Assembly (NCBI GenBank): GCA_963841935.1
Contig: CAWJEP010000005.1
Span: 164,003 to 228,002, forward strand
Length of the DNA stretch: 64,000 bases
Direction: 5' to 3'
From: an uncultured bacterium
Lineage (GTDB): Bacteria > Patescibacteriota > Minisyncoccia > Phycocordibacterales > UBA6065
Below are positions 46,508 to 49,393 of the stretch, one piece after another; position 1 is the stretch's first letter, and every line of letters begins with the position of its first letter. A program made the translations under genes and the position numbers. The notes beneath the pieces are model-generated. The model had not been told where the DNA came from. It saw only the letters and a list, made by a program, of their open reading frames with translations, and ran no database searches.

Positions 46508-49393
46508 CTAGTTTGGAACAATAAAATTTATTATTTTGTTTTTCACGTAAATTATTTTCGACGGTGTTTTTCCGGAGAGCCATTTCTCTAATTCCGACGC
46601 GGCAAAAGCGACTGCTTTTGCCGCGTCTTCGTCGGCATCCGCGGGCACCTCAATCACCGCGCGAACTTTGCCGTTTACTTGTACGGCAATATTTACTTTG
46701 GCGTCTTTGATAAACGCTTCATCCCACTTAGGCCAATCGGAAAGATGTATGGACTTTTTGTTTCCAAGCGAGCGCCATAATTCTTCGCTTATGTGTGGAG
46801 CGAAAGGCGCGAGAAGCTTCAAATAGCTCTCAAAATCGGCGCGAGCTATTGTCGGCACCTTGTCAAAAGCGTTTTGCAAAATCATAAGCGAACTTATCGC
46901 CGTGTTGAAACGCAAATTGGCGATGTCTTCGGTAACTTTCTTGATTGTTTTGTGTAAAAGCGTGTTTGTCGAAGAAAAAACAGCCTCTGGCGAGCGCGTA
47001 GTCTTAGCGGAGTCGGCGGAGCGCACAAGCGAGCCAGAGGCTGTTTTTTCGGAGACTTTCCACACGCGTTCGATGAACCGCCGCGAGCCAATCATACTGT
47101 CGGTGGACCATGCTATGGCTTGATCGAAAGGTCCCATAAACATTTCGTAAACGCGCAAAGTGTCGGCGCCGTATGTCGCGACTATGTCGTCGGGATTTAC
47201 GACATTGCCGAAACGTTTGGACATTTTTCTGCCGTCTTCGCCCATTATGAGTCCGACCGACTGCAATTTTTTAAACGGCTCGATTGTCGAGACAACGCCA
47301 ATGTCGTAAAGAAATTTGTGCCAAAAACGCGCGTATATGAGATGGCGTGTGGCGTGCTCGGCGCCGCCCACATAAAAGTCCACGCTGTTCCAATATTTTT
47401 CTTTTTTCGGAGAAACTAAAACCTTGGAGTCTTTCGGGTCCATATATCGCAAGTAATACCAAGAGCTCCCTGCCCATTGCGGCATCGTATTCGTCTCTCG
47501 TTTCATTCCTTTGAAATTGACCCATTTAGAAATCTCAGCCAAAGGCGACTCCCCCGTTCCCGTCGGTTCGTAATATTTCACTTTCGGCAATACCACCGGC
47601 AAATCTTTTTCCGAGACCGGCACTATTTTATTTCCGTTATGAAGCACCGGGATCGGCTCACCCCAATAGCGCTGCCGTGAGAAAACCCAATCTTTCAATT
47701 TGTATTTCGTCACCCATTTTCCGCCGGCTTTTTCGATGGCGTTCCTATCGGCAAACGGTTCGTCCTTTACGGGCAACTTGAACTTTTCCGCGAACGCCGC
47801 GTCTCTCTCGTCGTGTTTCGGCACTCCCATCACGGCTCCCGTGCCGTAATCGGCAAGGACATAGTCAGCAATCCAGACCGGCACCTCTTCCCCATTCACT
47901 GGATTTACCGCCTTGATTCCTTTCAATTCAACGCCGGTTTTTTCTTTCTTTGCGTCCGTGCGCTCAATTTCCGTTTTGATTCTCGCGGCGGCGACATATT
48001 TCACGACTTCTTTTTCGTTTTTCACTTCATGCAAAAGTTTTTCCACGAGCGGATGCTCCGGAGAAAGCACGACATACGTCACGCCGAAAAGCGTGTCTGG
48101 ACGAGTAGTGAAAACTTTTATTTTTTCCGTTTGATTTTTTATGGCGAAATCGATTTCCGCGCCTTCGCTTCGGCCAATCCAATTTCTCTGCGCCTCTTTT
48201 ATGGATTCCGGCCAATCAAGAAGCGGCTTCACAATATGGCGTGGCGCGCCGTCCATTACCAAATCCCAGCCGAGTTTCGAACCTTCGGCCGTCATTGCGT
48301 CACGAACTTTTTCCTCGGGAAGCCAAGTGACTTCGTGTTTGGCTTGTTCGTCAGCTACGACAGGAGCTTGTTCGCCGTCTTTTAGTTTGAAATAAAAAGA
48401 AGTGAAATGTCCGACGCGGTTTTCGTCTTTCGGCGGATGGAAAAATGTCGAGTGGTATTGACCGGCGCTTCTTTTCACGAGCGTCAGGTTTTTAAATCCC
48501 GTCTCTTCGAATATTTCCGCTCGCGCCGCTTCTTCCGGCGTCTGGCCTTTTTCGATGCCGCCAGTGATAGGAGTCGTCCAATCCACCTTTTTCCATTTGA
48601 GAACTATAAATTTCTTCTCCGACCAGTGTTCGACAAAAGCGCATATGGCGTTTCTCGGAACAAACGGCTTGTCCAATCTCACTTTGCCCGGAACATCGCT
48701 ATTCATATGGGTGATTCCAAATTCGCCATTCGGCAATGTCTCAAAAATGTCGCCGTTTGGCAAAACATTGGTGTCCAAGTCTTTCAAAAGTCTGTCGGCG
48801 TAATCGGTGATTTTCAAAACCCACTGGCGCATCGGTTTCTTCTCGACCGGCGTGCCGCAGCGCTCGCAGCGACCGTCTTCGACGTCTTCGTTCGCGAGGC
48901 CGGTCTTACACGACGGACACCAATTTATCGGCTCGTATGATTCGTAAGCCAAGCCTTTTTCCAAAAGTTTGAGAAAAATCCATTGCGTCCATTTGTAATA
49001 TTTCGGGTCGGTCGTGTTGATTTCCCTACTCCAATCATAATCAAAACCAATGATTTCCAGCTGTTTTTTGTACCTTGCGACATTTTTCGCCACGGCCACG
49101 ACCGGATTGGTCTTGGTCAAAATGGCGTAATTTTCCGCCGGCAAGCCGAAAGCGTCGAAACCCATTGGATGTAAGACGTTGTGCCCCTGCATCCTTTTCA
49201 TTCGGGAGACGATGTCGGTCGCGATGTAGCCCTTCGGATGGCCGACATGAAGACCTTCGCCCGAAGGATACGGAAACATATCGAGAACATAAAACTTGGG
49301 CTTGGGAGAATCATCCTTGGTCGCGTATATTTTCTTTTTCGCCCACCCCTTCTGCCACTTTTTTTCTATTTTCTTATGGTCGTATTGTTTCAT
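46508..49393 (-). CDS. leuS: Leucyl-tRNA synthetase carrying (i) an inserted NUDIX hydrolase domain and (ii) an in-frame palindromic-element insertion
   Basis: 'HVGHPKGY' HIGH motif, 'KMSKRFGN' and editing/anticodon domains. A Nudix box '[23 protein letters not shown]' sits between '...LKDLD' and '[18 protein letters not shown]'. Start is the ATG at 49393. Confidence 0.9.
   Translation of the reverse strand: [961 protein letters not shown]
46974..47050. repeat. Palindromic repeat element copy D inserted in frame within leuS (arms aaaaaacagcctctgg / ccagaggctgtttttt)
   Basis: Core gagcgcgtagtcttagcggagtcggcggagcgcacaagcgag. It is translated as ...[25 protein letters not shown]... in LeuRS. 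Confidence 0.8.

Follow-up and report, generated by a model that had tools for sequence, protein, structure and literature searches.

The window analysed here, a 64,000-nucleotide stretch of contig CAWJEP010000005.1 from an uncultured bacterium of the Patescibacteria, carries on its minus strand a leuS gene for leucyl-tRNA synthetase (LeuRS) into which a complete Nudix hydrolase domain is inserted. The open reading frame (ORF) around leuS spans 46508..49438 on the minus strand, and the N-termini of homologues favour the ATG at 49393 as the start (Table 1). The product scores 957.7 bits against the bacterial LeuRS model TIGR00396 (leuS_bact), whose cutoff is 548.4. Both class signatures are intact and fall in invariant columns of the LeuRS alignment, the HIGH motif as HVGH (aa 49-52, 49238-49249, minus strand) and the KMSKS motif as KMSKR (aa 723-727, 47213-47227, minus strand). 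The full-length AlphaFold2 model has a mean predicted local distance difference test score (pLDDT) of 84.9 and a predicted TM-score (pTM) of 0.78. Its ZN-domain strands (149-159, 164-166 and 184-193) coincide with those of Escherichia coli LeuRS (148-159, 164-166 and 184-193; PMC13454842), and the CP1 editing domain is recognised by PF13603 with 197.9 bits over profile positions 1-137 of 185. The enzyme keeps its own synthetic and editing sites. The leucine-specific domain before KMSKS is absent, with residues 580-637 of Thermus thermophilus LeuRS (1H3N) unmatched in the window protein. Also missing, at aa ~620-632 (~47500-47560, minus strand), is the CPxCKGxA zinc knuckle of most relatives (KWVNVKCPxCKGxAKRETN), the same position that hosts a HAD insert (site E, below) in other relatives.

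The Nudix insert lies between the ZN region and the editing-domain linker, at what we call site A. Searched alone, it matches PF00293 (NUDIX) with an E-value of 5.3e-13 and 49.6 bits, and within the whole LeuRS with 45.9 bits, against a gathering cutoff of 21.1. Modelled alone with AlphaFold2, it folds with a mean pLDDT of 90.9 and a pTM of 0.86, and in the full-length model all ten-residue blocks over the insert except one average pLDDT 90-97. A Foldseek search of the insert model against the PDB gave 486 matches at E<=1e-3, the best 50 of which all have the Nudix fold; the probability reaches 1.0 for solved Nudix structures, and the helix of the loop-helix-loop box corresponds to insert residues 77-89. 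A first-pass annotation of this DNA had placed a complete Nudix domain inside LeuRS at this point, and the Pfam search, the AlphaFold2 model, the Foldseek matches and the alignment to 1H3N bear it out; that the insert is a genuine Nudix domain is practically certain. No second Nudix gene was found elsewhere in the 64-kb window with the subfamily hidden Markov model (HMM).

The borders of the insert were fixed by homologue alignment. The insert is absent, and its flanks are joined directly, in the LeuRS homologues P0068, P0030 and P0061 as well as in 1H3N. Aligned with the latter, window residues 1-207 correspond to residues 1-208 and window residues 392-544 to residues 210-360, and because both flanks adjoin in this alignment, the insert replaces a one-residue turn (1H3N residue 209). 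The annotation's bounds of 48215-48770 and about 185 aa were right as to position and are refined here to 48215-48766 and 184 aa; its statement that the flanks are essentially contiguous in E. coli LeuRS agrees with the T. thermophilus alignment, in which residues 208 and 210 border the insert. The 34-residue upstream sequence that it quoted corresponds to aa 176-209 (48767-48868, minus strand), and the 18-residue downstream one to aa 394-411. Structurally, the insert separates two helices, one following the ZN domain and one that leads to the CP1 editing domain, and it starts 16 residues past the last ZN-domain strand. According to structural work from 2026, the ZN domain is a switch mounted on a hinge, which enters and leaves the synthetic pocket and contacts the tRNA 3' end (PMC13454842). 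In our model the insert is predicted to hang from the turn directly after this hinge. Its N-terminal extension is predicted to form a beta-hairpin, with strands at insert residues 7-10 and 16-21 and block-mean pLDDT values of 69, 78 and 90 over insert residues 1-30. The first ~20 residues of this extension (aa 210-231, VLPNGD...THMN) occur only in the window protein, P0006 and P0013, which form the window subclade.

Several trivial origins of the fusion were considered and rejected. An assembly chimera or frameshift is contradicted by the continuous ORF, by an identical protein in NCBI/ENA (P0005), by a 963-aa member of the same 90% cluster that comes from other sources (JGI/IMG and ENA), and by the presence of the insert in dozens of homologues. 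The junctions (DTN/VLPNG and PLLD/WPES) are without the splice-junction residues of an intein. A recent mobile insertion was dismissed in view of the lack of direct repeats at the insert borders and of a GC content that is the same across the insert.

The 23-residue Nudix box retains G278, E293, I294, E296, E297, G299 and F300, with E293, E296 and E297 as the metal-binding glutamates of REUxEE. It departs from the consensus Gx5Ex7REUxEExGU at position 7, which is Q284 and not E, and at position 15, which is A292 and not R; relatives do not conserve R291, which is off the canonical register by one residue. The box had been called canonical in the first-pass annotation and is better described as near-canonical, its two deviating positions (E to Q and R to A) being ones that covary. 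Aligned with the subfamily HMM, 233 homologous domains from site A, from site C and from free-standing genes show 96-100% conservation of the REUxEE glutamates (box E16, E19 and E20). Positions 7 and 15 covary strictly, being E and R in 162 copies and Q with A, T, M or S in ~55, while E with A, or Q with R, occurs in none. The same alignment shows conservation of at least 92% outside the box for K322, N325, R326, E349 and W357 (numbered as in LeuRS). This pattern suggests that the Q/A variant is a coherent subtype, here called Q-type, and not a product of decay. The ratio of nonsynonymous to synonymous substitution rates (dN/dS) is not computable against the closest relative (locus L005, protein P0006), where synonymous sites are saturated (pS ~0.8), and constraint was read from the proportion of nonsynonymous differences (pN) by region. 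With values of 0.168 for the Nudix core and 0.179 for the remaining LeuRS, pN indicates that the core is under purifying selection as strong as that on the synthetase. With these residues retained, the domain is likely to be catalytically competent.

The fusion is not unique to the window. PF00293 is found in 119 of the 120 best LeuRS homologues, which carry one to three Nudix domains each, at two sites, and the named homologues among the 120, from metagenome-assembled genomes, are labelled Paceibacterota, Parcubacteria or Patescibacteria. A Nudix-bearing LeuRS is the normal state in a large Patescibacteria clade. Global alignment of these 120 proteins to the insert-free P0068 (785 aa) mapped five insertion hot spots (sites A to E in Table 1); phmmer on all segments gave the contents of sites A and C, and for B, D and E one or two representative segments per site were scanned with Pfam. 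Site A is occupied in 77 of the 120 and site C in 94. Among the architectures, C only (34 proteins) and A + C (28) are joined by A only (nine, including the window protein) and by a single protein with no insert. The largest LeuRS reach 1564 aa with four or five inserts; P0008, P0011, P0015, P0019 and P0043 are among the multi-insert examples. Where site A holds a tandem pair, an ER-type copy usually comes first and a Q-type copy second. Site-A and site-C copies within one protein are only ~32% identical and are therefore old paralogues and not recent duplicates. A recent capture of the domain was likewise rejected: the four free-standing proteins returned by an indexed search with the insert alone reflect the sensitivity limit of that search, and full-length and exhaustive searches found many relatives.

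The inserts turn over between close relatives. P0068 shares 77% identity and synteny (DUF5671, leuS, Sigma70_r4/HARE-HTH and tRNA methyltransferase neighbours) with the window LeuRS and has no insert, and P0006, 74% identical and also syntenic, bears a Nudix domain at both A and C. At site C the window LeuRS carries the short scar EPFADRNAI, which matches the start of the site-C Nudix in alignments with P0006 and P0030; the subfamily HMM puts its model positions 17-30 on the scar, with a score that is not significant. The window LeuRS and P0068 share an identical site-C junction, in which D(E/R)PF(A/I)DR(N/T)A(I/V) runs straight onto EKAGGKW, and since this shared junction retains a Nudix remnant, the window LeuRS must once have had a second Nudix domain at site C. 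The deletion left the nine first residues of the lost domain and removed the CP1 segment GxLINSGxFxG...KKxIT, which explains why the C-terminal third of the PF13603 model is absent from the window LeuRS.

Table 1. Features of the window leuS gene (window coordinates) and insertion sites of Patescibacteria LeuRS (residues of P0068)
Feature	Coordinates	Strand	Residues or length	Description
leuS coding sequence	46508..49393	(-)	961 aa + stop	ATG start at 49393
ZN domain	48815..48949	(-)	aa 149-193	Four Cys (CPSC...CERC)
Upstream flank helix	48767..48808	(-)	aa 196-209	Helix 196-206 in model; aligns to T. thermophilus up to 208
Site-A insert	48215..48766	(-)	184 aa, aa 210-393	Nudix insert
N-terminal extension of insert	48665..48766	(-)	aa 210-243	Predicted beta-hairpin
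Nudix fold core	48254..48664	(-)	aa 244-380	PF00293, pLDDT ~90-98, Foldseek
Nudix box	48494..48562	(-)	23 residues, aa 278-300
Downstream flank	48161..48214	(-)	aa 394-411	Helix 396-406, then strand 408-418, the start of the beta-strand linker into CP1
CP1 editing domain	47765..48187	(-)	aa 403-543	T-rich TTRPDT motif and conserved Asp of HDERD
Site-C scar EPFADRNAI	47735..47761	(-)	aa 545-553	Remnant of deleted second Nudix
GEDG tetrapeptide	47231..47242	(-)	aa 718-721	Replaces leucine-specific domain, precedes KMSKR
Site A	P0068 ~210 (window's site)		165-187 aa, or ~335 aa tandem pair	Nudix 77/77
Site B	P0068 235-245		~105-190 aa	PF06821 serine hydrolase
Site C	P0068 364-378, CP1 loop		~160 aa	Nudix 90/94
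Site D	P0068 407-413		~45-200 aa	PF06821 serine hydrolase
Site E	P0068 448-467		~155-217 aa	HAD (PF13419)

Searched exhaustively with phmmer, 1.84 billion cluster representatives yielded no more than 362 relatives of the Nudix domain. Among the best 150 of these, 106 match LeuRS, three more are LeuRS fragments and 37 are short proteins, with no other host family represented. Species-representative genomes, scanned with a narrow alignment biased towards Q-type domains, yielded 76 loci, almost all labelled as Patescibacteria lineages; the domain lies within the LeuRS ORF in 63 of them and forms a separate gene of ~160-260 aa in 13. Four of the 13 free-standing genes (L020, L030, L079 and L084), together with one on a metagenomic contig (L008), are found 32-73 bp upstream of leuS on the same strand, and at L009 the gene 47 bp downstream of the free-standing Nudix is cut by the contig end. 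The downstream LeuRS in L020, L030 and L084 itself bears a site-C Nudix. These leuS-adjacent lineages are distant ones, with a LeuRS ~43-50% identical to P0068; that of L008 is ~43% identical to the LeuRS of the window clade, and the Nudix upstream of it is 55% identical to the window insert. Altogether, the same Nudix family is found within or beside LeuRS in hundreds of related bacteria of the candidate phyla radiation (Patescibacteria). Insertion into a protein combined with adjacency to its gene is a well-known mark of functional partnership. The use of two insertion loops and the operon-like adjacency in distant lineages argue for such a partnership rather than for chance lodging; we consider it fairly probable that the Nudix domain is coupled functionally to LeuRS and is not a passenger, and the subfamily is probably Patescibacteria-specific and a dedicated LeuRS partner.

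Some loci with the free-standing gene have other features of their own. At L001-L003 the Nudix gene stands next to a PF06821 serine hydrolase gene (in L001, 8321-8932 and 10001-10489), whose product is 30-37% identical to the site-B inserts, and at L051 (5481-6495) and L052 (5349-6435) it directly follows a HAD hydrolase gene. The LeuRS of L008 (914-3763) bears an unrelated ~135-aa insert at the start of CP1, in the site B region; precomputed Pfam matches of this LeuRS comprise synthetase domains only, and the insert had no scan of its own.

Taken as a whole, the reading that we favour, tentatively and as just short of an even chance, is that of an active Nudix domain that is coupled to LeuRS and acts on a by-product of adenylation. 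A Q-type paralogue threaded into the turn between the ZN-following helix and the CP1-leading helix would give the synthetase a second, independent active site, which may lie close to the synthetic site and would hold Mg2+ on E293, E296, E297 and probably E349. Enzyme-bound leucyl-adenylate (Leu-AMP) would react with ATP or another nucleoside triphosphate (NTP) to form dinucleoside polyphosphates (Ap4A or Ap4N, generally ApnN), and the Nudix site would cleave these to AMP and NTP; adenine nucleotides would be recycled and the build-up of alarmones or of Np4 caps limited.

Within the LeuRS active site, only ATP and ApnN side products bear a pyrophosphate bond that a Nudix enzyme can cleave, and aminoacyl-tRNA synthetases (aaRSs) are the classical source of Ap3-5N, which is why a pyrophosphohydrolase of the ApnN type, acting on the enzyme or as a partner, is favoured. 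In the PDB, the Aquifex Ap4A hydrolase 3i7u leads the sequence matches (E 1.9e-4) as well as the fold matches (Foldseek E 5.5e-8, target-normalised TM-score 0.77-0.79, root-mean-square deviation (rmsd) 2.8 Å), and RppH, Mycobacterium smegmatis MutT1 and Chlamydia CT771 come close behind it in the Foldseek list. CT771 is a Nudix Ap4A hydrolase according to its PDB entry, having been solved with hydrolysed Ap4A products. The domain has aromatic residues past the box (F317/F318 at +17/+18 and Y313 at +13), where F or Y is common in the subfamily consensus and which are not diagnostic; an aromatic residue (Tyr) some 16-18 residues after the box is reported as a feature of Ap4A hydrolases by Dunn and colleagues in 1999. 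RppH and MutT1 are likewise Nudix Ap4A hydrolases, and aaRSs have been identified as the main cellular source of Ap3-5N (PMC7705103). Matches in sequence and modelled fold point weakly towards a substrate of the Ap4A type, which we rate as possible and clearly less than probable.

Several observations weigh against the favoured reading. The subfamily profile, compared with the PDB, places the uncharacterised Nudix protein 2azw on top, with the lupin Ap4A hydrolase (1f3y is also among the matches). Matches to characterised Nudix enzymes do not exceed 34 bits, with E-values from ~2e-7 upward, and the Foldseek E-values of Ap4A hydrolases, RppH, MutT1, NUDT15 and ADP-ribose pyrophosphatases lie within about ten-fold of one another. 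No NCBIfam functional model comes near its cutoff for the insert, the best of the RppH models (PRK00714) giving 24.1 bits against 116 and the MutT 8-oxo-dGTPase model (NF008044) 14.3 bits against 148; homology, as far as these profiles go, cannot assign the substrate. Without the consensus E and R in its box, the window domain may have an altered or weakened activity. The inserts are dispensable for tRNA charging, P0068 having none and the window LeuRS having lost its site-C copy, and eight of the 13 free-standing genes in the species-representative genomes have no leuS within 6 kb. In addition, LeuRS is not known as a major Ap4A producer compared with LysRS or PheRS (reported by Goerlich in 1982).

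Other explanations were weighed against the same evidence. Loops of the CP1 region might simply tolerate insertions, with LeuRS serving as an expression and stability platform for passenger hydrolases of the house-cleaning or salvage kind that became lodged there in small Patescibacteria genomes; the Nudix domain would act on a general nucleotide metabolite that has nothing to do with leucylation. We think this rather unlikely. It would accommodate the three hydrolase superfamilies that share the five hot spots (A and C with Nudix, B and D with PF06821, E with HAD) and the repeated loss of inserts from LeuRS that are themselves retained, and the free-standing genes away from leuS, some of them beside HAD (L051, L052) or PF06821 (L001-L003) genes, hint at a module independent of LeuRS. 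However, LeuRS is the sole host among the best 150 relatives, the linkage to leuS recurs in three independent arrangements, including the separate upstream genes of distant lineages, and BLASTP detects no similarity between the HADs beside free-standing Nudix genes and those embedded in LeuRS at site E. Quite improbable, in our view, is an RNA 5'-end pyrophosphohydrolase or decapping enzyme of the RppH kind, for which LeuRS would be an RNA-binding or activating scaffold, much as DapF is a partner of E. coli RppH, and whose substrate would be 5'-triphosphate or Np4-capped RNA, possibly tRNA-Leu precursors or mRNAs. The best NCBIfam matches, all sub-threshold, are indeed RppH models, E. coli RppH structures, among them 6vck (the RppH-DapF complex), take ranks 4 to 10 of the Foldseek list, decapping Nudix proteins (AvrM14, Dcp2 and NUDT16-like) recur among the profile matches, and LeuRS offers a large RNA-binding surface. 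Yet the model score of 24 bits stands against a cutoff of 116, and since RppH also cleaves Ap4A, its matches do not separate this explanation from the one we favour.

It is very improbable that the insert is a non-catalytic structural or regulatory module, either a ligand sensor or a spacer that tunes ZN and CP1 motion. The missing consensus E and R, the position at a mechanically important hinge region and the existence of inactive Ap4A-binding Nudix proteins such as CF Im25 (PMC7705103) would suit such a role, but the three metal glutamates and a further Glu are kept in essentially all 233 copies, the Q-type ones included, which is hard to explain without catalysis. Scarcely plausible is an on-enzyme defence in which the hydrolases would destroy antibiotics that mimic leucyl-adenylate, or nucleotide toxins, in the manner of agrocin 84/TM84 self-immunity. 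LeuRS is a natural target of a Trojan-horse adenylate mimic (PMC5059758). Several hydrolase types lie around the active-site region, the insert content is patchy and changes fast between close relatives, as is typical of conflict systems, and NCBIfam holds a model of IleRS with a GNAT domain (NF040702). The known adenylate mimics, however, bear phosphoramidate or sulfamoyl links and not the pyrophosphate bond on which Nudix enzymes act, and no toxin or immunity gene was seen in the small set of neighbours that was scanned. We give next to no credence to pre-transfer editing, that is, to hydrolysis of non-cognate aminoacyl-adenylates by the Nudix domain, which the nearness of the insert to the synthetic site along the sequence might suggest. 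Leu-AMP is an acyl-phosphate mixed anhydride without a pyrophosphate bond and is not a Nudix-type substrate; these enzymes cleave nucleoside diphosphates linked to another moiety X. Aminoacyl-adenylate hydrolysis, one of the activities offered in the first-pass annotation, is thus chemically unlikely. Moreover, the CP1 editing site is intact (TTRPDT and HDERD), and Nudix-free close relatives keep a normal LeuRS.

On a wider reading, which we consider unlikely, up to five hydrolases (the diverged Nudix paralogues A-ER, A-Q and C-ER, a PF06821 serine hydrolase and a HAD phosphatase) in loops about the ZN and CP1 region would make LeuRS a multi-enzyme platform in Paceibacteria-like Patescibacteria, forming a LeuRS-coupled pathway for adenylation by-products (e.g. 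from Ap4N to NMP to nucleoside) or protecting the synthetase against toxins that mimic nucleotides. If true, this would be an unrecognised route of aaRS functional expansion in bacteria. Functional expansion of aaRSs by added domains is best known from eukaryotes, and bacterial LeuRS is regarded as fixed in architecture. In the present case, a radiation of uncultured bacteria with small genomes has one to three Nudix domains in LeuRS, often plus serine-hydrolase and HAD domains. The combination of insertion and adjacency provides a testable link between the synthetase and nucleotide or alarmone turnover, and the window protein, P0006 and P0068 form a natural plus/minus-insert set for biochemistry. 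The sites themselves are natural permissive insertion points in LeuRS for protein engineering.

Next to leuS in the window, directly downstream, lies a gene for a 343-aa protein with Sigma70 region 4 and HARE-HTH domains (45373-46404, minus strand), which is syntenic in L005, L006 and L007. Upstream of leuS (50317-54252, minus strand) are two predicted surface proteins, one of 581 aa with a weak Big_13 Ig-like match just below cutoff and one of 450 aa in which a bacterial Ig domain (Big_6) is combined with a type I dockerin at the C-terminus. Farther upstream, a tract of ~3.4 kb (55263-58836, both strands) encodes the tetrapeptide repeat (SPS[L/I/V])n in a minus-strand ORF of 1130 aa (48% Ser, 26% Pro). 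On the plus strand, the tetrapeptide repeat keeps an antisense ORF of 1173 aa free of stops, with a composition dominated by G, E, D and L; neither ORF has a Pfam match.

No published LeuRS-Nudix fusion was found in the full text of the open-access literature, although a description in a subscription journal is possible; within that scope the first-pass annotation, which knew of no described fusion of this kind, is borne out. A 2026 survey of domain insertions, which discusses the LeuRS editing domain, does not contain the word Nudix. The fusion proteins are already in public databases, labelled only 'leucine--tRNA ligase' where named, and our results give grounds for annotating them further. 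Enzyme and domain are each known; what is undescribed is their arrangement, which extends through a clade and for which genome organisation supplies independent evidence of coupling.

Compared with canonical LeuRS (T. thermophilus 1H3N and 2BYT; E. coli 4AQ7 and 4ARC), the window protein has the Rossmann core, the four-Cys ZN, CP1, anticodon-binding and C-terminal domains in the same order, and the HIGH, KMSKS and editing motifs are shared. It differs in having the 184-aa Nudix domain at 1H3N residue 209 and in being without T. thermophilus residues 361-406 (CP1) and 580-637. In Mycoplasma mobile LeuRS (3ZIU), a working enzyme, the leucine-specific domain is also replaced by a tetrapeptide, GKDG there and GEDG in the window (PMC3643597); that enzyme is, in contrast, without CP1 and has no Nudix insert. 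The IleRS with a GNAT domain that is named in the NCBIfam model NF040702 is similar in carrying an extra enzyme domain within a class I synthetase and differs in the synthetase, the added fold and the position. The free-standing members of the subfamily (P0001-P0004; loci L020, L030 and L084) are 47-55% identical to the insert and share its Q-type box and conserved motifs, whereas they are separate polypeptides of ~160 aa without the subclade-specific N-terminal hairpin. The Aquifex aeolicus Ap4A hydrolase 3I7U shares the REUxEE glutamates and, over 136 columns, the fold at the rmsd given above; at ~20% identity, the window domain differs from it in being embedded in LeuRS, in its extra N- and C-terminal elements and in two box residues, Q at position 7 and A at position 15. 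In the E. coli RppH-DapF complex (6VCK, 4S2X and 7SP3), the partnership is non-covalent, the partner is DapF, and the Nudix enzyme is one whose models the window domain fails to match (24 against 116 bits). As a functional analogy, however, it offers a Nudix enzyme active on Ap4A and Np4 caps that is paired with an unrelated housekeeping enzyme.

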